The translations under genes were made by a program, and so were the position numbers. Under the pieces are notes generated by a model. The model was not told the origin of the DNA and did no database searches. It saw only the letters and a list, made by a program, of their open reading frames with translations. This document shows, in pieces, positions 7,521-62,390 of a stretch of DNA of 64,000 bases. Numbering within the stretch: the stretch's first letter is position 1; each line of letters starts with the position of its first letter. Location of the stretch: positions 96,001 through 160,000 of the forward strand of contig CAVZDU010000001.1 of NCBI GenBank assembly GCA_963774265.1, in the 5' to 3' direction. The stretch is from an uncultured Chloroflexia bacterium (GTDB taxonomy: Bacteria; Chloroflexota; Anaerolineae; CG2-30-64-16).

Positions 7521-8501
7521 TTAGTTGGGGGATGCGCCGCGCAGTCTGGCCCACTCGCGTACGAGCTCCTCCTCACGCTCGTTAAGCTTCTCGGGGAGCA
7601 TCACGCGCACCCTCGCGTATAAATCTCCCCGTTCATTGCCCCGCAGCTTGGGCATCCCTTGGCCCGCCAGCCGGATTGTGCGGCCGGTTTGCGTGCCGGG
7701 TTTGATTTTCAAAGCGACCGCACCTGTGAAGGTGGGGACACGCACTTCGCCACCCAGCAATGCCTGGAACAAGTCTACGGCGATTTCGGTATACAAATCA
7801 TCTCCGCGGCGCTCGAAGTTTGCGTCCGGCAACACCTTGACAACCAGATAGATGTCGCCGCGCTGACCGCCGGCCATGCCGCCCGGTCCCTCACCTGCCA
7901 TCCGGATGCGCGAGCCGGTCTTCACGCCCGCAGGAATCTTAACTTCCAGGCGGCGGCCGTCCACGTCGAGCAGCCGTTGGGTGCCGCGAAACGCCTCCTC
8001 CAGTGTGACTTCGATCTCGTGCTCGTAATCTTGGGGTGGGGTGGCTTGAGCCGTGCGGCGCGCACCCGTTCGACGACCGGTTGCCGCGCCCGCCGTGCCT
8101 GTTGGCATGCCGCCGAAGATGGCCTGAAAAAAGTCGGAGAAGCCCTGCTCGCCGCCAAACAAGTCGTTGATGTTGCCGTACTCGACGCGCACATTACCTC
8201 GTGCGCCACCCGGCGCGCCACCCGCAGAGTACTGGCCCCAATCGAACCCGCCGCCTTGCCCACCGGTTTGCTGCCAGCGCTGGTAGTTCTGCCCCAGCTC
8301 GTCATACTTGCGGCGTTTTTCTGCATCGCTCAGCACTTCGTGAGCTTCGTTGATCTCTTTGAAGCGCGCTTCGGCGGCCTTATCGTCAGGATTCATGTCA
8401 GGATGATATTGGCGCGCCAGCCGCCGATAGGCTTTCTTGATTTCTTTCTCGTCCGCGTTCTTCTCAACACCCAGAGTCTTGTAGTAGTCCTTATACTCCA
8501 T
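7521..8501 (-). CDS. cbpA: DnaJ-class chaperone without zinc finger (CbpA-like)
   Basis: MEYKDYY start, HPD motif, G/F-rich region, DnaJ_C domain, no CxxCxGxG repeats. Confidence 0.85.
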
Positions 8502-8547
8502 CCCTGACTCCCCGTTAGCCCCGGCGGCGAAGGGTGACAGCAAAACC

Positions 8548-8576
8548 AGTATAGCCCCGCGGCTGGGGGCTGTCAA
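8548..8576 (-). promoter_or_regulatory. Sigma70-type promoter of cbpA-baeRF(-clpC)
   Basis: TTGACA-17 bp-TATACT on the minus strand. Confidence 0.75.
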
Positions 8577-8709
8577 GAGATTCTCGGCATTCGCCGACCC
8601 GGTTAGCTCAGACCCCTCAATACAAACCGGCCAAACCCTTGCCCCCAGTTATGACCGGAGTCAGGACTTTAGCCGGTTCATGTGACGTTACCGTAGACCT
8701 AAGAGTTGC

Positions 8710-9516
8710 TTATGGAATCACCAAAGTCTGCCCGGGGAAAATCCGGTCAGGATCCGTGATCTTGTTGGCCTCCGCAAGCTGCTTGACCGTCAACCCATAC
8801 TGTCGCGCGATGGAGAGCAACGTATCCCCACGTTGAATCACATACGTCTTGCCTTGGCCCGCACTTGGCTTCGCCGCTCCCGCCGCTTCGCTGCTGCCGC
8901 CCGGCAACTTGAGCACCTGACCAATTGCGATGTTGTCGGCGTCCGCCAGTTTATTCAGAGTTGCGAGCTCCTTGACCGTCGTTCCAAAACGCCGGGCAAC
9001 CGACCCCAGCGTGTCGCCCTGCTGCACAGTGTAGGTGGTCGAGCTGCCCGTTGTGGTTGTTCCGGATCCAGTCGTTGTCCCCGTGCCCGGAATAACCAAC
9101 ACCTGCCCAAGGATCAGCGCATTCGGGTCCGCGAGGCTGTTGAGTTGCGCGATCGCTTCGGTCGTAGTCCCAAAGCGACTAGCAATATCCAAAAGCGTGT
9201 CGCCGGCCGCCACCGTGTATTTGAATGTTTGGCCGCTGCCCGCTGCGGTCACCGCCGTTGGGTTGGCCGCCACCCCTGACTGAGAGGCAGGCGCACTTGG
9301 CGTCGATGCCGTACTTGCACCACTACCCCCCATCGTGGGCACTGCAACCTGAGTAGACGCCGGCACGACGGCAGTCGGTCCTGCCACAGTGGCACGCGCA
9401 GCCGGCGTACCTGTGCCGGTGGTCAACGCGGGCCTTTCCCTATTACAGGCCGTCATCGTCATGCTGAACAAGATCAACGTGCCAAGGACCAGCACTCGCT
9501 TCAGATGGTTATTCAT
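8710..9516 (-). CDS. Lipoprotein with three LysM domains
   Basis: Lipobox MTAC, T/A/P-rich linker, three YTV..GDTL..IA motifs, GGAGGAG RBS. Confidence 0.9.
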   Translation of the reverse strand: MNNHLKRVLVLGTLILFSMTMTACNRERPALTTGTGTPAARATVAGPTAVVPASTQVAVPTMGGSGASTASTPSAPASQSGVAANPTAVTAAGSGQTFKYTVAAGDTLLDIASRFGTTTEAIAQLNSLADPNALILGQVLVIPGTGTTTGSGTTTTGSSTTYTVQQGDTLGSVARRFGTTVKELATLNKLADADNIAIGQVLKLPGGSSEAAGAAKPSAGQGKTYVIQRGDTLLSIARQYGLTVKQLAEANKITDPDRIFPGQTLVIP

Positions 9517-32018: not shown

Positions 32019-32247
32019 GGGCCACTTTGGAGGTAACTGGTTCACCCGTCAATACTTATGTATAACCCATTTCGCGCGCACGGACGTGCTACGCGAGTCC
32101 TAGGGGTAGGGCCGCCCGCGACCACCATTTGGCGCCTCACACGCGGCCCCAAAATTCTCAAACCTTAAATCTTGTGCCTGTTTTTTTCGTTAAGGTTTGT
32201 TATCGTCAACTCACCGTGAGGCACAAAAATCTCCAGGCCAGGCGCCG

Positions 32248-33918
32248 TCACGCGGCCGGTTTGAGCATCGGAATCTTGACACCCATGCGCCTGCGCGGCC
32301 GCAATCGCTTCCGGATAGCCCGCATCGGCGTGACGGGCAATCCCCATGCCGGGATCGGTTGTCAGCACACGTTGCGAGGCGCCGTGCGGCCTCGGGCGTG
32401 CCATCGGCCACGATCACCTGCCCGGCATGCTGGCTGTAACCGATGCCGACGCCGCCGCCATGGTGGAAGCTTACCCAGGTCGCGCCGCCCACGGCGTTGA
32501 TCAACGCGTTCAGGATCGGCCAGTCCGAGATGGCGTCCGACCCGTCGCGCATCCCCTCGGTTTCCCGGTTTGGACTCGCCACGCTGCCTGCGTCCAGATG
32601 ATCGCGGCCGATCACGATCGGCGCCTGACACCCGTCCATCCGCCACGGCCTGGTTGAACGCCAGCCCGGCACGCGCACGTTCTCCGTACTTCAGCCAACA
32701 AATACGCGCTGGCAGCCCTTGCCAGGCGATGCGCTCCTGCGCCATCGTGATCCAGCCGGCGCAGATGTTCGTTCTCGGGGAACAGGTCCAGGATGATCCG
32801 GTCCGTTTCGTAGATGTCCTGGGGATCGCCGCTCAGCGCGACCCAACGGAACGGCCCGGAACCCTCGCAGAAGAGCGGCCTGATGAACGCGGGAACGAAG
32901 CCCGGATAGTCGAATGCATCCTTCACCCCTGCATCATAGGCGCGCTGGCGCAGGTTGTTGCCGTAGTCGAACACGACGCTGCCTGCCCGCTGGAAGGCCA
33001 ACATGGCCCGGACGTGCGCCGCCATGCTCTCCATTGCGCGTGCCTGGTAGCCCGCCGGGTCCGCCGCCCGTATGCGACGGCGGCTTGCTCCAGCGTCATC
33101 CCCGTGGGGATGTAGCCCAGCAGCGGGTCGTGCGCGCTGGTCTGGTCCGTCACCACATCGGGCGTGACCCCGCGTGCCACCAGCTCGGGCAGGATTTCGG
33201 CCGCGTTGCCCAGCAAGCCCGATCGATTTGGCCTCACCCCGTCGCCACCGCCTCCTCGACCCACGTCATGGCCTCTTCGAGGTTGTCCGTTGCGACGTCC
33301 AGGTAGCGGTGCTGCAGCCGGCGGTCGATGCGCCACTGGTCCACCTCGACCACGAGCGCCACGCCGCCGTTCATCGTCACAGCCAGCGGCTGCGCGCCGC
33401 CCATCTCGCCCAGCCCCGCGGTCAAGCACGAATCTTGCCCTTCAGCGTGCCCCAGCCCTGCTGCCGCGCCAGGCTCCCAAATGTCTCGTACGTGCCTTGC
33501 AAGGATGCCCTGCGTGCCGATGTAGATCCAGCTGCCCGCGGTCATCTGGCCGAACATGATCAGGCCCTCGGCTTCCCAACGGTCGAAGTTCTCCTGCGTG
33601 GCCCAGTGCGGCACGATGTTCGAGTTGGCGATCAGCACGCGAGGCGCATCTTCGTGGGTGCGGAAGACGGCCACCGGCTTGCCCGACTGGACCAGCAGCG
33701 TTTCGTCCGGCTCCAGGTTGCGCAGGCTCTCCAGGATCGCATCGAAGCAGGCCCAGTTGCGCGCCGCCCGGCCCCGTCCGCCATAGACGATCAGGTCATC
33801 CGGGAACGCGGCCACCTCCGGGATCCAGGTTGTTCTGGATCATGCGGTAGGCGGCTTCGATCAGCCAGTTCTTGCAGGTCAGCTTCGTCCCACGCGGGGC
33901 GCGGATGATGCGGCTCAT
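32248..33918 (-). CDS. hutU: Urocanate hydratase (multiple frameshifts)
   Basis: [72 protein letters not shown] spread over several frames. Confidence 0.93.
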
Positions 33919-33955
33919 GGCAATCCTCGATTGGTGCTCGTTCGCGTCACAGGCG

Positions 33956-35388
33956 TTACAGATCAAAGTACAGTCTGCACTTCGTACGGGTGCGGGCGTT
34001 CGAGCACCGCGTAGTGTTCCTTCAACTTGGCCTTGATCCAGTCCAGGATCGTCTCCTCGTCGAACACATCGCCGGCCAGCAGGAAGTCCGTAGTCGGCCT
34101 GCAGCGCCTCGCACGCCTTCGCCGAGCGACGTCGGCAGCGCCTTGATCTCGGCCCGACGCTCAGGCTCCCACTTGAAGATGTTCTCGTCGATCGGTCCGA
34201 AGCCGTGCTCGGTGGGGTCGATCTTCCGCTGCACGCCGTCGATCCCCGCCATCAGCATCGCGGCCATCGCCAGGTATGGGTTGCAGGTGGCGTCGGGCGG
34301 CCGGAACTCCATGCGGACGGCCTCCGGCTGGGTGGCGTACTTCGGCACCCGGATTGCCGCCGAGCGATTGCCGGTCGAGAAGAAGCAGTTGACCGGCGCC
34401 TCGTAGCCCGGCACCAGCCGGCGATACGAGTTGGTGGACGGATTGGTGAGGGCCAGCAGCGCCGGCGCGTGGAGCAGCAGCCCGCCAATGTAGTGGAGCG
34501 CCGTCTCGCTGAGCAGGCTGTAACCCCTGCCGCGTCGTAGAACTGGTTGACCCCACGCTTGAAGACGTGCTGGTGGAAGTGCATGCCGTTGCCCGCTTCA
34601 CCGAACAGCGGCTTGGGCATGAAGGTCACGGCCTGGCCGCGACTGCCGCGCGACCATCTTGCGACACGTACTTGATCGTCTGGACCGCGTCCGCGGCCGC
34701 CAGCAGCCCCATCAGCGGCGTCTCGATCTCGCACTGCCCCGGCCCGCCGACCTCGTGATGATGGTACTTGACCGGCACGCGCATCCCTTCAAGGGTGGTG
34801 ACGATGCGGGTCCGCAGAGGCGCGAGCTGATCGCGCGGCGGGATCGCATGATAGCCGCCATGCAAGCGGCACGTAGTGCCCGGCCGCCTTCAGGGCTGTG
34901 CCAGTCGGCCTCCGCCGAATCCACCCGGTATGAGGCGACATTGACTGCCGTTGTCGTAGGCCACGTTATCGAAGACGTAGAACTCGAACTCGGGTCCCCA
35001 CCGGCTTTCGTCGCGCGATGCCTGTGTCGCGCAGGTAGGCCTCTGCCCGCTGGGCGATCACGCGCGGATCCCGGAAGTAGAGGGCCTTGGTGTCGGCCTC
35101 CACGACGCTGCAGATGAAGCTCAGGGTCGGGACTTCCCAGAAAGGATCGACGACGCCGGTGGACAGGTCGGGGATGAGCACCATGTCGCCCGACTTGACG
35201 CTCCGCAGGCCCACGCTCGAGCCGTCAAAGCCGATGCCCGCGGTCATCAGGTTCGGCGTGAACTCGCTGGCCGAGAGCGTCACATGGTGCCAGCGGCCCC
35301 AAAGGTCGCTGAACTTGAGGTCGATCATGCGGATGCCGCTCTCACGCACGAACGCGGCCGCGACATCGAAGTTCTTGAACTCTGGCAC
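33956..35388 (-). CDS. glnA: Type I glutamine synthetase (multiple frameshifts)
   Basis: [59 protein letters not shown]. Confidence 0.92.
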
Positions 35389-35428
35389 AACAACACACTC
35401 CTTTGTGCAGGCTCTGCGCACGGCTTAC

Positions 35429-35457
35429 ATTATCGGGTAGGTAGCGAGTAAGCGCAA
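35429..35457 (-). promoter_or_regulatory. Probable glnA-hutU promoter
   Basis: TTGCGC-17 bp-GATAAT. Confidence 0.5.
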
Positions 35458-35483
35458 AACAGCGCTTCATAAGCGACAACAGC

Positions 35484-35514
35484 AAGGCCCTCGTCATGGT
35501 CTGACGGGGGCTTT
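35484..35514. terminator. Hairpin/terminator at the left edge of the island
   Basis: AAGGCCCTCGTCA-TGGTC-TGACGGGGGCTTT. Confidence 0.65.
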
Positions 35515-35850
35515 CGTTGCGTCATTCAGGGCGCCAGGATGCCCACAGAGGCCACTGTACGGCGATCAGGGCGTTTGATACAGTGTGCTGATGGAACCTT
35601 CCTATCATGCAGGGCGTGGCGCGCGTGAGGCAGTGTGGAAGGACGGAGGGAACCCGTTTCCGCGCTTCGACTTCTCGGTGGCGCAGATGCACAACGGGAA
35701 GCTGACATGGGAGGGGCAAATGTGCGGGGCGTAGGCGGTGGAGTATGCCTCAGCGAAACTGCAGGTTGATCTGAGTCAGCGGCTGGTGTACTCATACCGA
35801 AGAGCGAGCGAGCCGGAGGACCGGCCCTGATCGCCTTCCCGTTGGGGTGG
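35484..35850 (-). ncRNA. Candidate structured non-coding RNA
   Basis: Upstream TTGACA-17-TACCAT promoter, terminal hairpin, 12-bp and 10-bp long-range complementarities, no convincing ORF. Confidence 0.35.
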
Positions 35851-35855
35851 GCCGC

Positions 35856-35884
35856 ATGGTAGGCGAACCTAGCTCCATTGTCAA
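35856..35884 (-). promoter_or_regulatory. Sigma70-type promoter downstream of the HNH chimera
   Basis: TTGACA-17 bp-TACCAT. Confidence 0.6.
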
Positions 35885-35950
35885 GACGTTCGGAGATCGT
35901 ACCGAGCCAACTTACCGCAAGACAGGAAAGCTAGTAATTCACAGTACACT

Positions 35951-36943
35951 CTAGGCTATGTTTGCACCTTTTGAACGATTGCACTGCGCGCAGAGGAGTT
36001 GGATATTGCGTGCTGTATTGCTTCCGCCCTTGGAGACAGGGATGATATGATCATACTCTAGATTCGCTTGGCTTCCGCATTTTGCACAATGGCCTCTATC
36101 ACGTCGCCAGACGAACATCTTGACATCATCGGATATGGCTTGTCTTTCATATGCTAGGGGGTTCCGCATGTCGCCGAATATCCCTACATCATCGGGTATG
36201 GCTTGTCTTTCATATACTGGGGGGGCACCCATTTCGTCGAATAACCCTACATCATCGGGTATGGCTTGTCTTTCACATACTGGGGCGTTCCACCTTTCGC
36301 CGAACACGGCTAACGCCGCACTCGCGGTTGCTGATGTAATCACTCCATCCGCGTAGACGATGGCGTATTGGTGGACTTTCTTCAGGGCAAGCAGAGCCTC
36401 TCCAGGGCATCCATTGCTTCGTTCGGCCAGCAAATAAGAGGCTTCAACGGTGATCGCAACTCCCAGCCGGCTTGCTGATGAGGTTATTATCGTTTGCATA
36501 TCAGCCGTGCTGTAGGGATCAAGATTGAAGGCATACATCAGGTTGCCAAGTCTGTCAAGGACTTTCGATGGCCCTGAAGTTGTGCCAACTACGGTGAAAT
36601 GAGGAAGCTTCAAGCCAATCCTGCGGGCTGAAGAACCCTTCCCAACAGAAATCTCAATGCGGAATTCCTCCATAGCCCGAACCAGAAGCTCCAATATTGG
36701 TCTCCGCATTGTAACGTAGCCAGCCTGTACCAGGTAGAATCTTGCCCAGTCAACACTATTGCTGAACCGAGATGCACCACTGGAAATGGTGCCTGTGAGT
36801 TCGGCGTCGGAGATGCGGAGGCTCTCAATGATGATATCCTTCACCTCCGAAGGATGACCAGACCCGCCAAGCTTGTTTAGGGCGTCAATGATCGGACCGA
36901 AGAACTTGACGAACTTGGGGCCACCTTTGTTCGCTCTAGCCAC
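35951..36943 (-). CDS. Chimeric Mrr_N winged helix + RuvB C-terminal fragment + 3x21-aa repeat + HNH endonuclease
   Basis: FSNSVDWARFYLVQAGY (Mrr_N); AMEEFRIEISVGKGSSARRIGLKLPHFTVVGTT (RuvB); VWRRDRGHCAKCG...EYDHIIPVSKGGSNTARNIQLLCAQCN (HNH). Confidence 0.8.
   Translation of the reverse strand: MARANKGGPKFVKFFGPIIDALNKLGGSGHPSEVKDIIIESLRISDAELTGTISSGASRFSNSVDWARFYLVQAGYVTMRRPILELLVRAMEEFRIEISVGKGSSARRIGLKLPHFTVVGTTSGPSKVLDRLGNLMYAFNLDPYSTADMQTIITSSASRLGVAITVEASYLLAERSNGCPGEALLALKKVHQYAIVYADGVITSATASAALAVFGERWNAPVCERQAIPDDVGLFDEMGAPPVYERQAIPDDVGIFGDMRNPLAYERQAISDDVKMFVWRRDRGHCAKCGSQANLEYDHIIPVSKGGSNTARNIQLLCAQCNRSKGANIA
36123..36311. repeat. Three tandem 63-bp repeats inside the HNH chimera
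   Basis: ACATCATCGGRTATGGCTTGTCTTTCA begins at 36123, 36186 and 36249 and encodes ERQAI(P/S)DDV. Confidence 0.9.
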
Positions 36944-36982
36944 TTGTCTGCTCCTCTGAGGGGCATGAACTGCTCTGGCAGG

Positions 36983-38198
36983 CTAAGCATTGGTTAGTAA
37001 CTTGAAATCGTGCTCGCTCACGCGATGTGTTGCCTGCACAAACCAAGCCCATGAGTTGTTCAGGTTCTTGCCCTGAAATGCGTCAAGTATGGCCCGAAGA
37101 TCGGCGTTAACGACCACTGGTTCCTGAAGGTATAGCGTCGGGTTGACGACGGAGACCACCCAGGGGAAGTCGTCGGGATGGGCGACTTTCGGATGCCGCT
37201 TCAGCTCAGGTGCGGTCGCTACACAAGCGTGAGCGATGACGCCTTTGGTGGTGGCATAAAAACAGGATCCAGTCGCCGGGTTTAATGTGTTTGCGACCTG
37301 GCGTACGGTGACCGAAGGCATAGATATGTTCTTCGCCCACCAGTTGTTGAACGCACTCCTCAGCAGTTCCCTCCTCGTCTGACTTAACAGGTGTGAGCCA
37401 ATAGACTGGGGCGGAGTTCAGCAACTCAGTGACTTCTTGAGAGACCACGGGCGAAATGACTGGTGCTGAGACCTGAGGAGCAGGAAACAAGATGTTAGCA
37501 ACGGGTGCAATTTGAGATTGCGGCGCAGTAGTCCCTTCTAGCGGCTGTGACGCTAGAAGGCTCGTAATGAGATCGACAACAGGATCAATACGTGGGCCTG
37601 AAGGGCGCAGTAGCGCCAGCACATCTTGATGGCTTACGTGATAGGCGTCCATCATATCGGCAAGCGCCAGAAGAGACTCGATAGAGAGAATGCGAAGCTG
37701 ATCCGTGCGCTTCTCCGCGACGATGGCGTTATCGAGTTGTTGTAAACCAGCATCTGGCCTGCCAACGAGGTACAGCCCCAAGGCAGTATCCCAATTCGGA
37801 ATCTTCTTTTCCGAGATCAGCGCATCCACGTAGCCGATCAGCGTCTTGGTCTTGATTGCGAAGACATCGCTGGTCTTTACCTCTACAACGATATGAAAAC
37901 CGGTGGGCGAACGCCAATATCCGTCAAAACCGATGTGTGCAGTGGTTCCTTGATAACGTCCGAAGGTGACGTCGAAACCCATAAATCTTCCAAGGTGATT
38001 GACGAGGTCCTGAAGAGCTCTGGCATAGACGTCGCCTGACTTAAGCAAGCACTCATCAATATGGTCCCGAATCACCCCTACTTGCTTGGCATTCTCGGCC
38101 AAAAAATCACGGAAACGCTCGCGGGGAGTGTCCGGACCAGGCGCGTCGTCAAGTTTGCCGACAAGTGCGAGAATCTGACTTAGGCCGATGCTTGCCAT
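36983..38198 (-). CDS. PD-(D/E)xK restriction-like nuclease fused to a C-terminal EVE/PUA-like domain (frameshift near 37260)
   Basis: GFDGYW...VVEVKTS nuclease motif; YWLTPVK...IKPGDWI/CFYATTKGVIAHA...VSEHDF EVE-like part completed by ORF 36983..37321. Confidence 0.7.
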
Positions 38199-39103
38199 CT
38201 CATTCGACCTCCAGGGAAAGTTGCGTTAAGCGTGATCATCCCGGAGCCCAGGTCAACGATCCCAGTTATTGTGTAATCGGGTGCCTCTAACTCGCTAGTA
38301 GTGGCCATCAAGTCCAATATCCCAGCTTCTTTGTCGAACTCTCCATAGATAGAGTAATCTGGCGAGATACGGATCATCCGAGACTAGATCAAGCATCGCA
38401 AATCCGCCTTCCAGATCAATCTCTACCACTTAGTGAGTAGTCTGGGGCGTCAACAAAAGCAGACACCAGCTTAAGTTCGACACTGCCTGAGTGTATCGAC
38501 CCACGTGCCAGACCCCGTGTACATCGGTCCTTCCGAATAGGGCGTTGCATGAAGAACGATCTGTTTAGCTGATTGCCCCGGCACAGTCTTCTTCAGCTTC
38601 CTACCGGATGCGTGGGATCCCATCCTCGGCTCAGACGGTACTGAAGTCAGGGGAGACGCCTCGGAAGTCTTTTTCACGCCAGATCCACATTGGCTGCAGA
38701 ATCTGGCTGAGCTTGCTACTTCAGCGCCGCACTGCTTGCAGACCTGCTTTGCTGCCGTCTCTTGTTCGTCTGAGCGTAGCCACTCGATCAGGGTCATCTC
38801 CTGGTTGGCCAATGCGGTGTTTATTTGCAGCAGCGTCATCAAAACGGCACGGCACTGGGTAGCCTTCCATTGGTTTCCAAAGATAGGGCGGAGGTACCTC
38901 CTTTCTGCTTCGCCCACTTCGGCAGATAATCCCGCCATCTTTTCCTTCCTCGACCTGACCAGCGCAAGCAACTGCTCCGCCTCAGTCCTGCTCGTCCACT
39001 CTGGAACACTTAGCGTGACAACGCGGTTTTCGCCCGGTTGCGGAGTCCTAATACCAAGGACCCGTTCGATTCGGGCGAAGTACTCATCCTCCACACTGGA
39101 CAC
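38180..39103 (-). CDS. Helical + zinc-ribbon + acidic beta-repeat protein (about 3 frameshifts at 38380-38500)
   Basis: CKQC...CSQC; repeats GPMYTGSG, APDYSLSG, SPDYSIYG, APDYTITG continue across frames into ORF 38180..38377. Confidence 0.6.
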
Positions 39104-39143
39104 TTGAATTCTCCTTCATCGTAGCTGACAGCGGCTGTGTGCG

Positions 39144-39204
39144 ATGCTTTGTGTTGCCGGAAACAAATGCTACCACAGGCAGCCATGACCGCAAAGGGGA
39201 GACG
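39144..39204 (-). repeat. Promoter-bearing direct repeat, copy 1
   Basis: About 80% identical to 40121..40182; TTGCGG-16-TAGCAT with extended TG. Confidence 0.8.
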
Positions 39205-39341
39205 ATTGTCCGAGGTTCAGCGGGCCGTGACAATAGGAGCGGTCAATCGACTGGCGGAATCGGGCGATATATTGGATCAGGTGGCAAATTCGCTGTGGCG
39301 GGATGGCGCAGCCGGAGACTGGTGCCGACGGAGTGAGGCAG

Positions 39342-39419
39342 ACGGAACGGCAATGGGTTAAGCCGCGCGTGGTCCGAGCGCAGCGAGGCGAAGTCGTCCG
39401 GTGCAACGCGTGGTGAGCC
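39342..39419 (-). mobile_element. Degenerate integron attC site
   Basis: GGCTCAC-CACGCGTTGCACCGGACG...CCTCGCTGCGCTCGG...GCC-GTTCCGT, 12 nt after the NYN stop; its left core matches GTTAGCCCG upstream of the gene. Confidence 0.65.
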
Positions 39420-39431
39420 CGCCCTCACGAT

Positions 39432-39974
39432 TTACACGGCAAGTAGCCTTAAGTATGGATTCAAAGAGATGAACTTGTCACATGAATGCTTCACCTCTTG
39501 AGAGGCATGTTCCCAGAACACAACTTCGACTCGGTATCCATCGTCACGTAATCGCTCAATGGCAGGAACGAAATCGCCATCCCCTGCAACCAGCGTTATT
39601 GTATCTTCGTTCTGATTCACACGCTTGTAAGCATCAGCGACCATAGCCGTCACAATCCCCGTATCTATCTTTTTTTCACGATTAGCCACATTACGATCAA
39701 CTATAATGGGCTCGAACCCTGCACGCTCCGCCATCATCCAGAGAATATCGTTTTTGGGTGGGCGCGACCCAAACAATGCCGCACGCCTAATGTTTTCAGG
39801 CTTCTCTCCAGCAACGAACGCGAGTAATTTGCCAAAAGCGATTCTGTAGCTAACATCTAGGATTCTGTTGTACATTGCATCCCAGATGCTCAATGCGAGT
39901 CCGTTCTCAACGGCGCTAACACGCTGACCTTCGATAAACACATTGGAGTTATCGACATAAACGTATTCAGCCAG
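39432..39974 (-). CDS. NYN-domain (LabA/DUF88) PIN-like ribonuclease, gene cassette
   Basis: Frame extends to a CTG at 39974 after GGAG, giving AEYVYVDNSNVF; EKKIDT and LVAGDGDFVP motifs. Confidence 0.85.
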   Translation of the reverse strand: MAEYVYVDNSNVFIEGQRVSAVENGLALSIWDAMYNRILDVSYRIAFGKLLAFVAGEKPENIRRAALFGSRPPKNDILWMMAERAGFEPIIVDRNVANREKKIDTGIVTAMVADAYKRVNQNEDTITLVAGDGDFVPAIERLRDDGYRVEVVFWEHASQEVKHSCDKFISLNPYLRLLAV

Positions 39975-40003
39975 TAAACTCTCCGATGTCCCAATAGGCG
40001 AAA

Positions 40004-40045
40004 CGGGCTAACAAGTCAGAATCCAGCGAACTGCTGGATATGTTA
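40004..40045 (-). mobile_element. attI-like recombination site or cassette 5' junction
   Basis: ATATCCAGCAGTTCGCTGGATTCTGACTT-GTTAGCCCG: GTTRRRY-like core preceded by a short dyad, with no attC hairpin. Confidence 0.45.
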
Positions 40046-40120
40046 CTCCGGCCACATCATCTGGAGCCGCATCTCGCGGGGTCAACGTGCCAACAGGAAG
40101 CTCTGCGGCCAACTCATACA

Positions 40121-40182
40121 ATACTTTGTGTTGCCTGAAACAAACGCTACCACAAACGGCTATCACTGCAAAACAGGAGACG
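40121..40182 (-). repeat. Promoter-bearing direct repeat, copy 2
   Basis: About 80% identical to 39144..39204; TTGCAG-16-TAGCGT. Confidence 0.8.
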
Positions 40183-40184
40183 GT

Positions 40185-40538
40185 TCACAGCAGGCTGTCC
40201 GCCCGCCCTTGCTTGGGGCGCTGCTCCCTGGCATCCGCTTGAGGCAGTGTGGCGTCACGGCAGGCAGCGTCACGTTTGCGTCGGCGAGGCTCAGCAGCGC
40301 GTCGGCGTACCTCATATCGCAAATGACACCGCTGGCATGGACTCGCAAGGTTGGCGGGATCGGAGTTTTGAGGATCGTGGTCCAGGTGGGCGACGGTCAG
40401 GATAGCCCGGCTTCCGGTTTCGGGGTGGGGCTGGAGGTTCGCGGCCCCGCACCATTCACAACGCCAGCCAGCCTATTTCCGGACAGCGAAGCTGATCTGC
40501 TTCCAGTTGGGCGGTTGGCGGTTGGCGTGAAACGGCAT
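40185..40538 (-). pseudogene. Phage-type HNH endonuclease with in-frame TAG at codon 22
   Basis: Hand translation MPFHANRQPPNWKQISFAVRK*AGWRCEWCGAANLQPHPETGSRAILTVAHLDHDPQNSDPANLASPCQRCHLRYE; absent from the ORF track. Confidence 0.8.
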
Positions 40539-40703
40539 TACTTCATCGACCCGCTTCACCGCGGCAGCAGCCCAACGTGCAACATCCCGCACTCCCGGCA
40601 GGTGTTGTAGCGGTACTCCCAGCGCGTCCCCGTGGATTCCTCACGTTTCTTGACCCTGGCTCGCAGCGGGCGTCTTGCACCTCGTCGGGCAAGCGCGCCG
40701 GTC

Positions 40704-42260
40704 CTAATCGGTGAGCGCGGCTGTCACCGAGTTGCCGATCTCACCGCTGACAAGCAGGTCGTAGACGGCATCCATGTGCGGATACATCACTTCGTCGCGC
40801 TCGATGAATGGCACGCGTCCACGCACGAGTTCGTAAGCGGCCGCAGTTCCGCAGCCCAGTTGGGCCTCGGGCATCACCTTCCGCCTGAAGTCGATGCCCT
40901 GGCTCGCAGCCAACAACTCGATCGCCACAATTCGCCCGACGTTGCCGATGATCTGCCGCGCCCGGCGCCCGGCAATCGGTCCGTTGGATACATGATCCTC
41001 CCAGTTGGCCGATGTGGGGATCGTATCCGCGCTGGCCGGATGAACCAGCATCTTGTTCTCGGATGCGAGCGCCGCCGCGGTGTACTGAACCAGCATGAAC
41101 CCGGAGTTCAGCCCGCCCTGTTCGGTCAGAAAGTCGGGCAGGGTCTGGCGATTGCTGGAGCCATCCACCAGCCGCGTCAGGCGCCGCTCCGACATGTTGC
41201 CCAGCTCGGTGATCCCCAGCGCGAGATAGTCAAACGCGATGGCCAGCGGCTCCCCGTGGAAGTTGCCCCCGCTGATGGCAATCGGCGAACCATCGGATTC
41301 AAAGAAGATGAGGGGATTATCGGTCGCACTGTTCAGCTCGATTTCAACCACCCACCGCGTATACTTGATTGCATCGTGGCACGCGCCATGCACCTGGGGG
41401 ATGCAGCGCAAGGTGTAAGCATCTTGCACGTCCGGGTGGTCCGGCGGGCGGACAAAAGTGGAGCCTTTGAGCAACCGCCGCATCAACGCGGCCGCATCGA
41501 TCTGCCTGGGGTGCGGTCTGGCAAGGTGAAGCCGTGCGTCCAACGCCCACAGCGTGCCATGCAACGCCTCCAGGCTCAAGCCACCGGCCACATCAGCGCA
41601 TAAGGCCACATTTTCAGCCTCGACCACCGCCAGGCAGCCGAGTGCGGCCATGAGCGCGGTGCCGTTCGTCAACGCCAGGCCCTCTTTCGCCTCCAATGTG
41701 ACGGGGCCGAGCCCGGCCTGGCGCAGCGCCTCGTCACCCTTCATGCGCCGTCCCTTGTACTCTGCTTCGCCGAGACCAATCAGGACCAGTGCGATGTGGG
41801 CCAGGGGCGCCAGGTCACCCGACGCGCCCAGGGAACCCTGCACCGGCACGATGGGATGAACCCCGCGCTCGAGCATAGCGAGCAGCAGGCGAAGCGTTTC
41901 AAGACGGATGCCCGAGTGACCCTTGGCCAGCGTGTTCGCGCGAATCAGCATCATTGCGCGCACGACCGCGGTGTCAAAAGGCCGGCCCACACCCACCGCA
42001 TGGCTCATGACGATGTTCCGTTGTAAAGCGCGCACCTGGTCTGGGGGAATCACCCGGTCCTTGAACGCCCCGAAGCCCGTTGTAATGCCGTAAATGATCC
42101 GGTCCTCGGCCACGAACTGCTCGACCGCTGTGCGCGCGGCCTGCACCTTCGCCTCAGCGCCGGCCGTCAGCTTAACCGTTAGCTCGTCCGCCTTTGCGTG
42201 GGCCGCCAGCAGCACATCTTCAATCGACAGGCTTTCACCGTCCAGTTCAAGGTGATACAA
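40704..42260 (-). CDS. hutH: Histidine ammonia-lyase
   Basis: YGITTGFG, MSH specificity residues, GSLGASGDLAPLAH (MIO); TTG start after AAGGAGG. Confidence 0.95.
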   Translation of the reverse strand: MYHLELDGESLSIEDVLLAAHAKADELTVKLTAGAEAKVQAARTAVEQFVAEDRIIYGITTGFGAFKDRVIPPDQVRALQRNIVMSHAVGVGRPFDTAVVRAMMLIRANTLAKGHSGIRLETLRLLLAMLERGVHPIVPVQGSLGASGDLAPLAHIALVLIGLGEAEYKGRRMKGDEALRQAGLGPVTLEAKEGLALTNGTALMAALGCLAVVEAENVALCADVAGGLSLEALHGTLWALDARLHLARPHPRQIDAAALMRRLLKGSTFVRPPDHPDVQDAYTLRCIPQVHGACHDAIKYTRWVVEIELNSATDNPLIFFESDGSPIAISGGNFHGEPLAIAFDYLALGITELGNMSERRLTRLVDGSSNRQTLPDFLTEQGGLNSGFMLVQYTAAALASENKMLVHPASADTIPTSANWEDHVSNGPIAGRRARQIIGNVGRIVAIELLAASQGIDFRRKVMPEAQLGCGTAAAYELVRGRVPFIERDEVMYPHMDAVYDLLVSGEIGNSVTAALTD

Positions 42261-42289
42261 CGCAGCCCTCCTTTGGACTGTTTTGGCGA

Positions 42290-42742
42290 TCAAGGGGCGG
42301 CTATCTGCCGTGCACGCTCGATCATGGCGCGTGTTGCCGGCAGAAGCGGATAAGCATCGAGATCATCGGCGGAAACCCAGCACAACTCGGCCGCATCGTC
42401 GCCTACCACTAAATCGCCCCCCGAATAGGTCGCCAGGTAGTCAATCACCACGTAATGATAGCGGATTCTGCCATCATCGTCACGTTGGATCGGCTCAAAA
42501 ACACCCAGCAGCGGACCGACCGCCACTTCGATGCCGCACTCCTCCCGCACCTCGCGGCGCACGGCCTCTTCCAGCTTCTCGCCAACGTCGACAAGACCAC
42601 CAGGCAGCGCCCACGAGCCTTGCGCAGGCGGCTGTCCGCGGCGCTCCAACAACACCGCGCCATCGCGCCACACCACCGCACCTACGCCCACCATCGGGCG
42701 CCGCGGGTACAACCGCTCAGAGCGATCCTCGGCCATCGTCAT
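42290..42742 (-). CDS. Nudix hydrolase
   Basis: Nudix box GGLVDVGEKLEEAVRREVREECG. Confidence 0.9.
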   Translation of the reverse strand: MTMAEDRSERLYPRRPMVGVGAVVWRDGAVLLERRGQPPAQGSWALPGGLVDVGEKLEEAVRREVREECGIEVAVGPLLGVFEPIQRDDDGRIRYHYVVIDYLATYSGGDLVVGDDAAELCWVSADDLDAYPLLPATRAMIERARQIAAP

Positions 42743-45458: not shown

Positions 45459-46355
45459 CTACCTGTCTCTATTGCGTGGCGCGAGCTGCTTCAGCGTGGT
45501 CTGCACATCGGCCAGCTGGTCTCGCAGCGTATCTGAGTAGATCCGCAGGAAGTGATCCGTATGAGCAGCCCAGGTAGCGCCCCTGTTCGGGTCGGCCAGC
45601 ACCAGGGCCTGCGACAGCGCGTGCAGCGTGGCCGCCGCGGCAGTCCACGAAGGCAGAATCCCGATCGTGTCAACCGGCGCATACAAGACGTGCTGCGCGA
45701 CGGAGGCAATCGCGTTCGTGGCTGAGCCGGCAATCGCGACGGTTTTTGCACCCACATCGCGCGCCACCTTCAGGATCACAGCAACCCCCGGGGTCATCGT
45801 GGTCATGCCAATGCAAAGCACGGCGTCCTTAGAGGTGAGCGTGGTAGACATGGCCGCCTGCCCTGCCAATTCCGATGGAACCGGGTGGGCCGCATAACCA
45901 AGGCTGACCAGTCGACCAACGAACGCTTCGCACAGAAAGGAGAGGTTGCCTTCGCCTGCGACAAAGATGCGCTGCGCACTCTGAAGCACCTTGACGATGC
46001 TCTCAACCGTCTCCTCATCGAAGTGCAGCAGGGAGTAGTCGAGGTTGTTGCGGTCCTGCATCAGGTTGCGGCGAAAGACCTGGGTGGGCGAGTTGTCGCC
46101 CTCAGGCGGCTCATACACCGCCTGCAGGTCGCGCTTGACCTCATCCTGAACTTCGTTGATCAGTTCAGGGAAGCCAGGGTAGCCAAGGCGTTGTGCGAAG
46201 CGAACGACCAGCGCCGTATCGACGTCAACGAGACGGGCGATCTCCGCGGCGGTCATAAATGCCGCGTCCTGGTAGTGGTTCAGCAAATAATCGGCGATCC
46301 GCCGATATCCGGGGGAGAATTGGCCATATAGGGCGCGAATACCTTCTCTGAACAC
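45459..46355 (-). CDS. MurR/RpiR-family transcriptional regulator
   Basis: RRIADYLL, VVRFAQRLGYPGFPEL, SIS domain; GTG start after GGAG. Confidence 0.9.
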   Translation of the reverse strand: MFREGIRALYGQFSPGYRRIADYLLNHYQDAAFMTAAEIARLVDVDTALVVRFAQRLGYPGFPELINEVQDEVKRDLQAVYEPPEGDNSPTQVFRRNLMQDRNNLDYSLLHFDEETVESIVKVLQSAQRIFVAGEGNLSFLCEAFVGRLVSLGYAAHPVPSELAGQAAMSTTLTSKDAVLCIGMTTMTPGVAVILKVARDVGAKTVAIAGSATNAIASVAQHVLYAPVDTIGILPSWTAAAATLHALSQALVLADPNRGATWAAHTDHFLRIYSDTLRDQLADVQTTLKQLAPRNRDR

Positions 46356-46381
46356 TGCAATACTCCATTGGGGGATGGATG

Positions 46382-47206
46382 TCAGGATAACTCCGACAGG
46401 GCATGAGCGATCTCGGCCGATCGCTTGGAAGCAGCTTCCGGTTGTTGTTGGGCCAGCGTTTGGGCGATGGCGGTGCATAAAGCATACAGACTGGTCAGGC
46501 TGGGAAGCCCGTCTTCGGTTTCGCCGGGCGCGTAAAGCAGGTGCTCAGCCGATCTTGCAGCCTGGCTGCTCAGGCTGGGAGTGCAGGCAAGCGTCACTGC
46601 GCCTTCACTGCGCGCATAACGCAGCACCCGGGCGACCCCGGATGCCCCTTCCACCGGCGTCATACCGATAACAACCTCTTTGCGCACAACGTGACTCAAG
46701 GCCGCTGCGCGTTCATAGACATCGCCGGAGGCGTACACCACAGGCAGACCTGCTTCACGCAGAGTGGCAGCGAACGATTCAGCCAACGGCGCCGCGGAGG
46801 CTTCACCGGTCACCACGATACGCGGTGCGGCGCGCAGCATATCGATGATATTCTCCAATGAATCCGGTGTGTTATGCGCCAAGGCTTTTTCCAGATTGGC
46901 GCGATCCTTGGCGACGAACGACTGGATCCTGCCGTATAGGCCGCCATCGTCTGTGGGGATGGCGTATGTCTGGCTCAATTCAAGCTTGACCTGCACTTGA
47001 ATATCTTCGATCAGTTCGGGGAAGCCCGGATAACCCAACCGTTGGGCAAACCGGACAACTGTCGTTGTGTCCACATCCACGGCGTCTGCCAGCGCGGCCG
47101 CGGTCATGAATGCTGCGGTGCGGTAGTCGCTGAGGATAAAGTCAGCAACCCGGCGGTAGCTGCGAGACAGATGGTCATAGTGTTTGCGGATCTGCTCTCG
47201 AAACAT
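46382..47206 (-). CDS. MurR/RpiR-family transcriptional regulator (tandem paralog)
   Basis: RRVADFIL, VVRFAQRLGYPGFPEL, SIS domain. Confidence 0.9.
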   Translation of the reverse strand: MFREQIRKHYDHLSRSYRRVADFILSDYRTAAFMTAAALADAVDVDTTTVVRFAQRLGYPGFPELIEDIQVQVKLELSQTYAIPTDDGGLYGRIQSFVAKDRANLEKALAHNTPDSLENIIDMLRAAPRIVVTGEASAAPLAESFAATLREAGLPVVYASGDVYERAAALSHVVRKEVVIGMTPVEGASGVARVLRYARSEGAVTLACTPSLSSQAARSAEHLLYAPGETEDGLPSLTSLYALCTAIAQTLAQQQPEAASKRSAEIAHALSELS

Positions 47207-48586: not shown

Positions 48587-49360
48587 CTAGCGCTTCTCTG
48601 CAATCGCGATAATCGATGTGCCGAACGGCAGGCTCACGCGGCGCAGAAGGGCCACCTCCACTTTGCCTACGAACGTCAGGAACGCGTTCAGCGCCGGCGA
48701 GGCGGGTTCCATCTCCACCTGGTACGCGTCTTCGTCGAAGTGCGGTGAGGCCAACTCCGGCTCGGCCCGACCCCGGCGAAGCAGGATGAGCAGCGCGGCC
48801 AGGGGGAACACAAAGAAGTTGTTGTAAGAGATCCGCAGAACCCGAAAGCCGTGTGTTTCCAGCTTGCCGCGGAGTTCGGCGACCGTATAGCGCCGCTGGT
48901 GCATGTTGATGACGTCGTTCTGGCTCCATAGAAACATGAAAGCCGGCACAGTGACGAGGAGCCGTCCGCCAGGCTGGCCGCCCTGGGGGCTGCGCAGCAC
49001 GCGCCTGCATTCCTCGAACACCTGCCCTTCGGCCGGCACATGCTCCACCGTGTCCAGCACTGTCAGCAGATCGAACTCCGCATCGTCGAACGGCAGTGCA
49101 TCGGCCAGCCCCTGGCGCACGTCCAGCCCGCGTTGCAGCGCAACTTCCAGAGGCTTCGGGTTGTTGTCCACGCCGATCACGTGCCCGTAATGGCTCAAGT
49201 GGTGCATCATGTTCCCGGCACCGCACCCAACATCGAGGACGCGCAGCGAGCGCCCCGCGCCCACATACCGGTCGAGATAAGCAAGGATCGCGCGCGTGCG
49301 CGAGGCAAACCACCAATGCTTGTCTTCTTCGAGCACCGTTAGCATCGGGGTAGCGGTCAT
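48587..49360 (-). CDS. Class I SAM-dependent methyltransferase
   Basis: EDKHWWF, VLDVGCGAG, LDTVEH, HQRRY. Confidence 0.88.
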   Translation of the reverse strand: MTATPMLTVLEEDKHWWFASRTRAILAYLDRYVGAGRSLRVLDVGCGAGNMMHHLSHYGHVIGVDNNPKPLEVALQRGLDVRQGLADALPFDDAEFDLLTVLDTVEHVPAEGQVFEECRRVLRSPQGGQPGGRLLVTVPAFMFLWSQNDVINMHQRRYTVAELRGKLETHGFRVLRISYNNFFVFPLAALLILLRRGRAEPELASPHFDEDAYQVEMEPASPALNAFLTFVGKVEVALLRRVSLPFGTSIIAIAEKR

Positions 49361-61613: not shown

Positions 61614-62390
61614 CTACCGCAGCTCCACGCTCACCTCCACCTGCGCCTGGACGACGATCTGGCCCAGGCTGAACTCGCTGTCTTCGATGGCCGGCGCGGA
61701 CGCGGGCGCGATCTCCTGCATCACGTTCTGCGCCTGGTTCGACGCCAGCCCACGGCTCCCCGAGCCGTAGTAGTACGACCAGGAGTTCTCCTGGATGTCG
61801 GTGACGCCGCCCGCAGTGACATTCGCGGCTGCGGCCAGCGCCCCTGCCTTCTCCAACGCGGCCTTCACCGCCATCTCGCGCGCCTGGTCGCGCAGCTCGC
61901 GCAGCCGAGTCGTGCTGAATGTCAGGTCGTCGACCGTGGTCGCACCGGCCTCCAGGCTGACCACCAGCACGTCGCTCAGCTGGCTGATATCACGCAGATT
62001 CACCTGGATGCCGTTATTGCTCCAATAACCGACGAGCGCCCGGTCGCCATACTGCCGGTAGTCGTACTCGGGCCGCAGGGTGAAGGAGTCCGTGCCGATA
62101 TCCTGGCTCGCGATCCCCTGCTTCTCGAGCGCGTCCAGCACCCGCTTGACGATCGCCACATTCTCCGCCTGCGACGCCCGCGGGGTCTTGGCGAAGGTCT
62201 GCACGCCGAACCGGATGGTCGCCCGGTCCGGCTGGACGCGGATCACCGCGGTCCCGCTGGTGTGCAGCGAGCCGGTCTTTTCCGACTGTGGGAGCGGCGC
62301 GGCCGCGACAGGTGCGGGACCCATTGGCCGCACGAACGCCGCGAGGAGCAACGCTGCGATGAATCCGATGACCGAGAGTGCCTTCTTCAT
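61614..62390 (-). CDS. SIMPL (DUF541) domain protein
   Basis: Signal peptide, VQPDRA, AREMAVKAALEKA. Confidence 0.88.
   Translation of the reverse strand: MKKALSVIGFIAALLLAAFVRPMGPAPVAAAPLPQSEKTGSLHTSGTAVIRVQPDRATIRFGVQTFAKTPRASQAENVAIVKRVLDALEKQGIASQDIGTDSFTLRPEYDYRQYGDRALVGYWSNNGIQVNLRDISQLSDVLVVSLEAGATTVDDLTFSTTRLRELRDQAREMAVKAALEKAGALAAAANVTAGGVTDIQENSWSYYYGSGSRGLASNQAQNVMQEIAPASAPAIEDSEFSLGQIVVQAQVEVSVELR

Follow-up and report, generated by a model that had tools for sequence, protein, structure and literature searches.

Fusions of an EVE domain with a PD-(D/E)XK nuclease, with the EVE part at either end of the chain, appear among the putative type IV restriction enzymes in the census of Bell, Wolf and Koonin (2020, PMC7641849). 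The EVE-HNH enzymes VcaM4I and TspA15I prefer DNA containing 5-hydroxymethylcytosine or 5-methylcytosine (5hmC/5mC) and carry no methyltransferase, according to the sections devoted to them (PMC6765204; PMC7897488). In the part of the EVE-HNH screen that mentions such proteins, a fusion that joins a PUA-superfamily domain to PD-(D/E)XK is seen once, in YenY4I, with DUF3427 placed between the two (PMC6765204). Yet another combination, that of a winged helix (wH) with HNH, makes proven modification-dependent enzymes, as stated where these fusions are described (PMC11037411). Here we discuss a gene cluster in a 64,000-nucleotide stretch of DNA from an uncultured Chloroflexia bacterium (contig CAVZDU010000001.1, positions 96,001 to 160,000), hereafter the window; all coordinates are positions within it. 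The cluster comprises gene 1, for a zinc-ribbon protein, gene 2, for a PD-(D/E)xK-EVE nuclease, gene 3, a fusion of Mrr and RuvB-like-HNH parts, and, upstream of these, a gene for a NYN nuclease domain.

We consider that this region is probably a horizontally acquired defence islet of approximately 4.4 kilobases (kb), with a guanine + cytosine (GC) content near 0.52 vs 0.62 for the genome. It would be made of independent single-gene nuclease modules, and would not constitute a single multi-protein system.

A predicted modification-dependent nuclease

Gene 2 is best read as a predicted stand-alone, modification-dependent (type IV) restriction endonuclease. Its frame comes in two pieces (37260-38198 and 36983-37258), which match nothing in Pfam or NCBIfam, nor in PADLOC at E <= 0.1. 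The N-terminal piece finds 1165 relatives (E <= 0.001) among 5453 candidates. The 120 relatives listed are 329-415 amino acids long and share 57-70% identity with the query over 98-100% of its length, with the exception of P0121 (95% over 77%); the typical size in the family is about 380-410 residues. They belong to Chloroflexota, anaerobic methanotrophic (ANME) archaea (Methanophagales) and others, and where they bear a name (two were named by NCBI) it is 'EVE domain-containing protein'. The alignment of the family (A1) displays near-invariant motifs, D...EVK, YWL and WAWFVQ. Conservation there reaches 90% or more at D97, E111 and K113, and the counterparts of these residues in the window protein are D92, E106 and K108.

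The likely architecture appears in an AlphaFold model of one relative, P0122, built from a 24-row alignment (predicted local distance difference test, pLDDT, 78.8). It comprises two domains with a disordered linker between them. The N-terminal domain matches PD-(D/E)xK nucleases: FokI (2fok_B, E 6.6e-5), N.BspD6I, HindIII, SduA and EndoMS. The C-terminal domain matches EVE folds, among them PH1033 (1wmm, E 9.1e-6, target template-modelling score 0.66), MJECL36 (2p5d), 2gbs and 1zce, and further THYN1 (5j3e), the EVE domain of VcaM4I (6yex_A, E 4.6e-4) and YTH domains. The modelled structure thus gives the family a PD-(D/E)xK fold with its catalytic residues, and an EVE (PUA-superfamily) domain that is recognized by fold, its sequence support being sub-threshold: in intact relatives the Pfam EVE model gives E 0.004-0.27, or 11.6-17.6 bits for a cut-off of 23. 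A first-pass annotation of the window, made from its sequence, had named gene 2 a PD-(D/E)xK-EVE nuclease, and these folds, together with the catalytic residues that are kept, bear this out. Searched against the sequences of the PDB, the family profile retrieves chance-level intein matches only (E 0.09-0.13). P0122 has no match in a phage collection, and one partial match, covering 19% of the query, in a plasmid collection. As a solitary gene, gene 2 would do without a DNA methyltransferase of its own.

A defence-type nuclease role for gene 2 is well supported, and this role would be modification-dependent. On incoming DNA, a modified base would be bound by the EVE domain at the C-terminus; the EVE-HNH enzymes, taken as an analogy, make some form of modified cytosine the likeliest mark. 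The N-terminal FokI-like domain, carrying D92, E106 and K108, would then cut nearby, probably after two molecules have paired as FokI does. The host would need no methyltransferase because, in this proposal, its own DNA is free of the mark. If gene 2 works in this way, then a large, highly conserved family, with more than 1000 clusters across bacteria and archaea, joins the modification-dependent restriction enzymes, which are useful for mapping modified bases.

The neighbourhoods of the family

A genome scan with the gene 2 family gave 80 loci, spread over many bacterial and archaeal phyla, where co-occurrence was assessed from the gene 2 side, within 8 kb. At least 1 kb of upstream sequence is present in 66 of these loci, at least 1.1 kb of downstream sequence in 65, and both in 53. 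The first-pass annotation took genes 1 to 3 for one undescribed defence operon. The partners do not, however, follow gene 2 in these loci. With tblastn at E <= 1e-5, gene 3, two full-length RuvB-like-HNH proteins, the four pieces of gene 1, two relatives of gene 1 and the NYN protein are found in 0/80 loci, and the same is true of three Mrr-family proteins (0/80). When the gene 1 family, as a profile, is run against the 8666 open reading frames (ORFs) of these loci, only zinc-ribbon-level matches come up; the best (E 3.8e-5, locus L056) falls at the place of an ORF which, according to Pfam, encodes an SPFH-zinc-ribbon protein. When neighbour ORFs are clustered all against all, no family is present in more than 6 of the 80 loci. 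What survives of the proposed modification-dependent anti-phage system is therefore the defence-type role of gene 2, whereas a single, conserved three-gene system is not supported. The combination had not been recognized as a named system, and no multi-gene system model of PADLOC-DB 2.0.0 matches genes 1-3.

Among nearest-neighbour ORFs, 25/128 (in 24/74 loci, three very long ORFs being left out) match PADLOC at E <= 1e-10, a count made without a matched control. The kinds are mixed: a type I S subunit, type II, IIG and III enzymes and methyltransferases, AbiEii, PD-Lambda-1, PbeC, PDC-S02, PDC-S11, HEC-05 and a BrxH-like helicase. For three of them (L011, L060, L065), the match is made via generic domains. 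In a Pfam scan of 25 large nearest ORFs that have no PADLOC match, about half turn out to be ordinary metabolic or translation genes, such as those for GlnRS, aconitase, enolase, ArgRS and malate synthase. In Bacillota loci L032, L033, L035 and L037 (around 8001-9150), the gene 2 relative has a type III-like methyltransferase directly on one side and a ResIII-helicase protein of 813-852 residues on the other; overall, the upstream neighbour family is present in 6/80 loci and the downstream one in 5/80. Taken together, the neighbourhoods have the pattern of a defence module that consists of one gene, is mobile and suffices by itself.

Gene 3, an in-frame chimera

Gene 3 is of a different nature. 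Pfam identifies Mrr_N at residues 11-79 (E 4.9e-13), which breaks off at position 69 of a profile of 87; RuvB_N at 79-124 (E 1e-9), with only profile positions 96-141 of 159, i.e. those after Walker B; AAA_lid_4 at 144-214 (E 3.6e-12); and HNH at 286-327 (E 1.3e-12). Residues 1-77 correspond to residues 1-77 of P0391, a 295-residue Mrr-family protein (69% identity), while residues 79-330 correspond to residues 192-400 of P0002, a RuvB-like-HNH protein of 401 residues (56% identity). A search with residues 1-85 retrieves 65 other proteins (187-328 residues, 47-71% identity), all made of Mrr_N + Mrr_cat. With the whole sequence, 6477 candidates give 1272 relatives. Most of the 119 that are listed beside the protein itself are RuvB-like AAA+-HNH proteins, and these 119 match the query only over roughly its final three quarters. 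Among the 120 listed matches of 1272, the window protein is the only one to combine Mrr_N (PF14338) with RuvB/HNH in one chain. The domain calls behind the name 'Mrr_N-RuvB'-HNH chimera', given at first, are therefore right, but the protein is a one-off fusion and not a designed architecture. No other fragment of either parent is found in the window by tblastn, P0391 included among the queries.

What is missing is as telling as what is present. Gene 3 has no Mrr_cat (PF04471) according to Pfam, which sets it apart from the Mrr family proper. It has neither Walker A nor Walker B, hence not the full RuvB motor, made of an AAA+ core and a C-terminal winged helix: aligned with Salmonella RuvB, it has Mrr_N in place of the Walker A/B region and HNH in place of the C-terminal domain, and its NCBIfam RuvB score is 89.6 vs a cut-off of 282. 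Of the complete RuvB-like-HNH chain it keeps the lid and HNH, the first ~191 family residues being gone. In PADLOC, it has generic HNH-region matches only (best E 2.8e-5). Just before HNH, tandem 63-nucleotide units encode ERQAIPDDV... three times, where relatives have one unit; this makes an insertion of 42 residues (two extra 21-residue repeats). An AlphaFold (AF2) model (pLDDT 69.2, predicted template-modelling score 0.38) shows confident structure in two parts only, the lid (~141-210) and HNH (~270-330), with pLDDT ~48-63 at residues 79-140 and <50 at 216-264.

The simplest history would be an in-frame deletion that joined codon 77 of an Mrr gene to approximately codon 192 of a neighbouring RuvB-like-HNH gene on the same strand. 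Its size would be ~1.3 kb, because 218 + 191 codons of the parents are missing. As judged from its sequence, gene 3 is most likely a crippled remnant, which kept a winged helix and an intact HNH, and lost Walker A/B together with the Mrr catalytic domain. By analogy with wH-HNH enzymes, it may have some residual or new winged-helix-HNH activity.

The RuvB-like AAA+-HNH family that donated the larger part is the most interesting lead of this work. Its members (P0002-P0120) are 198-502 residues long and come mostly from metagenome-assembled genomes of Chloroflexota; one listed member is without HNH. A Walker A loop is present in full-length members, many of which also bear zinc-ribbon repeats at the N-terminus. 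In the subgroup of the window, full-length relatives have 'EQ' or 'KQ' for the 'DE' of RuvB Walker B, and the sensor-2 arginine is lost, as seen in an alignment with Salmonella RuvB. Because of these two changes, the parent of gene 3 was probably not a normal motor. The labels that the family bears are only 'RuvB' or 'HNH endonuclease' (P0009 is only 'RuvB family' in the Protein Atlas), it has no PADLOC or NCBIfam model, and a limited full-text search turned up no paper that describes it. Compared with plasmids and phages, P0002 has no place that covers at least 80% of the query, and among the matches listed all end by residue 348, before HNH (357-398).

Gene 1 and the layout of the islet

Gene 1 is a lineage-restricted, near-orphan zinc-ribbon protein, as far as sequence comparison goes. 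Its main frame (38474-39103, 210 residues) is followed by further pieces at 38416-38550, 38295-38429 and 38180-38377. The zinc ribbon noticed at first is genuine (Pfam Zn_Ribbon_1, residues 122-141, C-x2-C...C-x2-C, E 2.9e-7). The accompanying repeat, PDY[ST]xxG...D...G...L, is visible by eye in the downstream frame pieces, and this C-terminal part matches no family of Pfam or PADLOC; in PADLOC the gene as a whole has no match at E <= 0.1. Clear relatives are just two among 1.84 billion representatives, P0242 (152 residues, E 1.9e-34) and P0245 (150 residues, E 1.6e-19), and both cover only the helical domain and the zinc ribbon, the C-terminal part being lacking. Weaker matches span residues ~40-150 in a few cases and the zinc ribbon alone in the rest; in the Protein Atlas, gene 1 finds zinc-ribbon clusters only, all <0.8. 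Its stop and the ATG of gene 2, which has GGAGG 9 nucleotides ahead of it, overlap by 19 nucleotides, and because of this overlap the two genes are probably co-translated. Relatives of gene 2 manage without gene 1.

The genes are tightly packed on the minus strand, as first described: the ORFs of genes 1 to 3 occupy 35951-39103, with the overlap just cited and a gap of 39 nucleotides between genes 2 and 3. They lie with the NYN gene, the fourth minus-strand gene, in a low-GC island that was also correctly recognized. Its four 1-kb bins (36001-40000) are the lowest of the window, at 0.516-0.540, vs 0.552-0.714 for all others. A glutamine-synthetase-like gene and a urocanase gene (hutU) flank the island on the low-coordinate side, and the histidine ammonia-lyase gene (hutH) on the other; dnaA is found ~4 kb past the low-coordinate end, and its presence suggests that a replication origin may be near the window. 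In a Pfam scan covering the stretch from 26 to 50.6 kb with 23 of its larger ORFs there is no DNA METHYLTRANSFERASE, in agreement with the earlier statement that no methyltransferase gene accompanies the three genes; the lone methyltransferase is a Methyltransf_11/UbiE-type protein (48587-49360). The same scan reveals no integrase or transposase among the 23 flanking ORFs. The single tRNA gene of the window is at 61680. A pair of 17-nucleotide direct repeats brackets the island, their likeness stopping at these 17 nucleotides; they may be, at best, a faint insertion footprint. Farther along, two RpiR-family regulator genes (HTH_6 + SIS) stand in tandem on the minus strand (45459-47206), their ORFs overlapping by ~100 nucleotides.

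Table 1. Position of genes and sequence elements in the window
Feature	Coordinates	Strand	Description
dnaA	30333-31727		Complete: DnaA_N, Bac_DnaA, Bac_DnaA_C
17-nucleotide direct repeat, left copy	35622-35638	+	16/17 identical to its partner at 40236-40252
Gene 3	35951-36943	-	330 residues, intact frame; in-frame chimera
Gene 3, RuvB-like-HNH C-terminal part	35957-36709	-	AAA+ core remnant, lid, intact HNH (tblastn)
Gene 3, three tandem 63-nucleotide units	36112-36304	-	Repeat finder; copies 81% identical to the reference unit
Gene 3, Mrr N-terminal part	36713-36943	-	Winged helix (tblastn)
Gene 2	36983-38198	-	Predicted PD-(D/E)xK (FokI-like) + EVE nuclease, ~404 residues
Gene 1	38180-39103	-	N-terminal helical domain, zinc ribbon, linker, repeated PDY[ST]xxG motif
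52-nucleotide element, copy 1	39144-39195	-	41 nucleotides upstream of gene 1; direct repeat D2
Sigma-70-like site	39205-39233	-	TTGTCA-17-GACAAT, 9/12 consensus match; probably the promoter of the first-pass annotation
NYN gene	39432-39941	-	NYN (LabA-like, PIN-like) nuclease domain; upstream of gene 1, same low-GC island
52-nucleotide element, copy 2	40121-40172	-	Upstream of the NYN gene
hutH	40704-42293		Intact frame

Frameshifts: errors or decay

Four frame breaks are present within ~1.3 kb, three in gene 1 between ~38370 and 38500 (as seen in three-frame translation) and the fourth in gene 2. On alignment A1, the pieces of gene 2 abut exactly, at DWI(C/L)F|YATTKG, and P0121, a metagenomic relative that is 93-95% identical, reads DWICFYATTKG unbroken. 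The extra base lies within 37258-37266, either in the T5 run 37258-37262 or as one C of the CC at 37265-37266. Beside the island (32211-35421), the urocanase gene is in at least 3 pieces and the glutamine-synthetase-like gene in 4. Because these adjoining genes are broken too, the four frameshifts of the island would most likely be sequencing or assembly errors. The assembly seems error-prone in patches.

One may think, instead, of a decaying island, with genuine frameshifts, genes 1 and 2 reduced to pseudogenes, gene 3 left over from a deletion, and no remaining protection for the cell. The density of the breaks would fit, as would gene 3, which is demonstrably a fusion remnant; furthermore, dnaA and hutH, at 1.4-1.6 kb each, are unbroken, so that the breaks are unevenly spread when compared with what random errors would produce. 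We nevertheless hold this scenario to be doubtful: urocanase and glutamine synthetase are broken alike, which points to assembly and not to selection, and the pieces of gene 2, 66-68% identical to P0122, keep the D...EVK, YWL and WAWFVQ motifs.

Upstream elements and the operon question

The NYN gene constitutes the fourth nuclease-type module of the islet (Pfam NYN, E 1.2e-20; PADLOC NYN, E 3.2e-8, and HEC-09, E 4.8e-6). Its frame stays open past the GTG called as its start, over 39942-40007, where it encodes YVYVDNSNV, with no ATG, GTG or TTG start ahead. In this segment one may recognize the initial strand of the NYN fold, and a non-standard start or a further frame error may be the cause.

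A 52-nucleotide element precedes both this gene and gene 1. Its copies are 83% identical, and a 28-nucleotide core is present exactly twice in the window vs 0.00 expected. Copy 1 holds, on a reading of its sequence, a promoter-like core, TTGCGG-16-TAGCAT, with TG before the second hexamer, as well as the imperfect palindrome TTTGTTTCCGGCAACACAAA. We propose, with low confidence, that the element is a shared promoter or operator; because each transcription unit follows a copy of it, those of NYN and gene 1 may be co-regulated. The element is absent from all 81 loci searched. A structured RNA or a terminator was considered and discarded, with z-scores of -0.65 and +0.79, a hairpin that is not kept in copy 2 and no Rfam family; an Rfam scan of 35000-41000 at E <= 1 gave 0 matches. 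The sigma70-like promoter put forward in the first-pass annotation is its weakest point. A 9/12 site does exist at 39233-39205, but sites of this level number 7 in the region vs 3.4 +/- 2.2 in shuffles, which is not above chance.

These features might be taken as the signature of a lineage-specific multi-nuclease operon, where genes 1-3, perhaps together with NYN under the shared element, are expressed jointly and cooperate. In that case, the chimera would be a newly born winged-helix-HNH modification-dependent nuclease, with the remnant of the AAA+ lid as a spacer or oligomerisation piece, and gene 1 an adaptor or regulator. Operon-like packing with its stop/start overlap, the upstream element found just twice in the window, the intact HNH of gene 3 in a frame of 330 open codons and the match to no catalogued system are all in favour of this arrangement, and so is the proven modification dependence of wH-HNH fusions, in the account already cited (PMC11037411). 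It is an unlikely one all the same. Co-occurrence is 0/80 in the gene 2 loci; the chimera is unique among the matches listed, with an Mrr_N that stops short, at position 69 of the 87 in the profile; the RuvB remnant and the repeats are poorly modelled (pLDDT ~48-63 and <50, respectively); and the relatives of gene 1 are proteins of about 150 residues that lack its C-terminal part.

A bolder scenario sees in this locus the birth of a new defence nuclease. The deletion would have made an Mrr gene and a gene of a pseudo-ATPase RuvB-like-HNH protein into a working winged-helix-HNH type IV enzyme, co-regulated via the shared 52-nucleotide operator with the PD-(D/E)xK-EVE enzyme, its zinc-ribbon partner and the NYN nuclease, as a layered multi-nuclease unit. 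Behind it would stand an undescribed, widespread RuvB-like-HNH family, with a subgroup whose Walker B glutamate is replaced by glutamine, possibly a ring-shaped DNA-sensing nuclease of a new kind. We regard this as quite unlikely.

Finally, a role in DNA repair or recombination, with gene 3 as an HNH resolvase of RuvB descent that, assisted by helper nucleases, works on branched DNA, is very improbable: the homology of gene 3 to RuvB_N and to the RuvB lid, and the alignment of its retained segment with the stretch of Salmonella RuvB after Walker B, speak for it, but gene 3 has no Walker A/B, full-length relatives of its subgroup have 'EQ'/'KQ' for 'DE' and have lost the sensor-2 arginine, the RuvB equivalog score (89.6 vs 282) is far from the cut-off, and the location is a low-GC island with type IV-like neighbours. 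The targeting of branched DNA, also put forward in the first-pass annotation, falls with it, the RuvB part of gene 3 being devoid of the whole nucleotide-binding half.

What speaks against independent modules

Several observations weigh against our interpretation of the region as a defence islet of independent modules. The first ones are about organization. A 19-nucleotide overlap, a 39-nucleotide gap and a common strand make an operon-like packing, so that co-transcription and some functional coupling are plausible. The enrichment in PADLOC matches beside gene 2 relatives is the uncontrolled count noted above. Those relatives that lie next to a type III-like methyltransferase and a ResIII protein (5-6 loci) look as if they were inside a restriction-modification operon, which would make their roles context-dependent. 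The relatives for which there is enough flank are at most ~60% identical, and a partnership confined to the close kin of the window is conceivable.

Other points touch the proteins themselves. The Pfam match of the gene 2 family to EVE is under the curated cut-off. EVE domains are also able to bind RNA, and the target of gene 2 may thus not be DNA. The unbroken dnaA and hutH mean that errors are uneven, and some of the frameshifts may be real. Lastly, the frame of gene 3 is open over 993 nucleotides in an error-prone assembly, with all the zinc and catalytic residues of HNH present, which fits continued selection. Defence islets built of independent modules remain the interpretation that we prefer for this locus. 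Tight packing alone is a poor ground for calling a set of genes a 'system', and here independent modules and a deletion would explain it.

Comparison with known systems

For gene 3, two families come to mind. The N-termini of Mrr family members (Mrr_N + Mrr_cat, ~290 residues) are 55-71% identical to its residues 1-77, whereas their Mrr_cat is missing from gene 3, as it is everywhere else in the window. The RuvB-like AAA+-HNH proteins have the lid and HNH in common with it, but their Walker A loop and zinc-ribbon repeats are not in gene 3. The order of its parts (winged helix, spacer, HNH) resembles that of wH-HNH enzymes, and this is a likeness of order: the latter form natural families of 224-283 residues, whereas gene 3 is a singleton fusion of a truncated Mrr_N and a RuvB remnant. 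The END nucleases (bioRxiv 10.1101/2025.03.31.646159), also considered as a counterpart, are described there as PLD-type enzymes and offer an analogy only.

Gene 2 has closer kin. Like VcaM4I and TspA15I, it would be a fusion of an EVE sensor and a nuclease, and the EVE domain of VcaM4I is a structural match to that of the model; by contrast, the nuclease of these enzymes is a C-terminal HNH, that of gene 2 an N-terminal PD-(D/E)xK. A literature search found no bench-tested member of the gene 2 family. It is with the EVE-PD(D/E)XK enzymes (PMC7641849), in what their census says of them, that the likeness goes furthest. On both sides a single chain would unite a nuclease with an EVE reader, and there is no obligatory methyltransferase. 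Like these enzymes, the gene 2 family is scattered across bacteria and archaea, often near defence genes. With its N-terminal, FokI-like nuclease and its length of ~380-410 residues, it can be matched to the entries of that census at the level of architecture.

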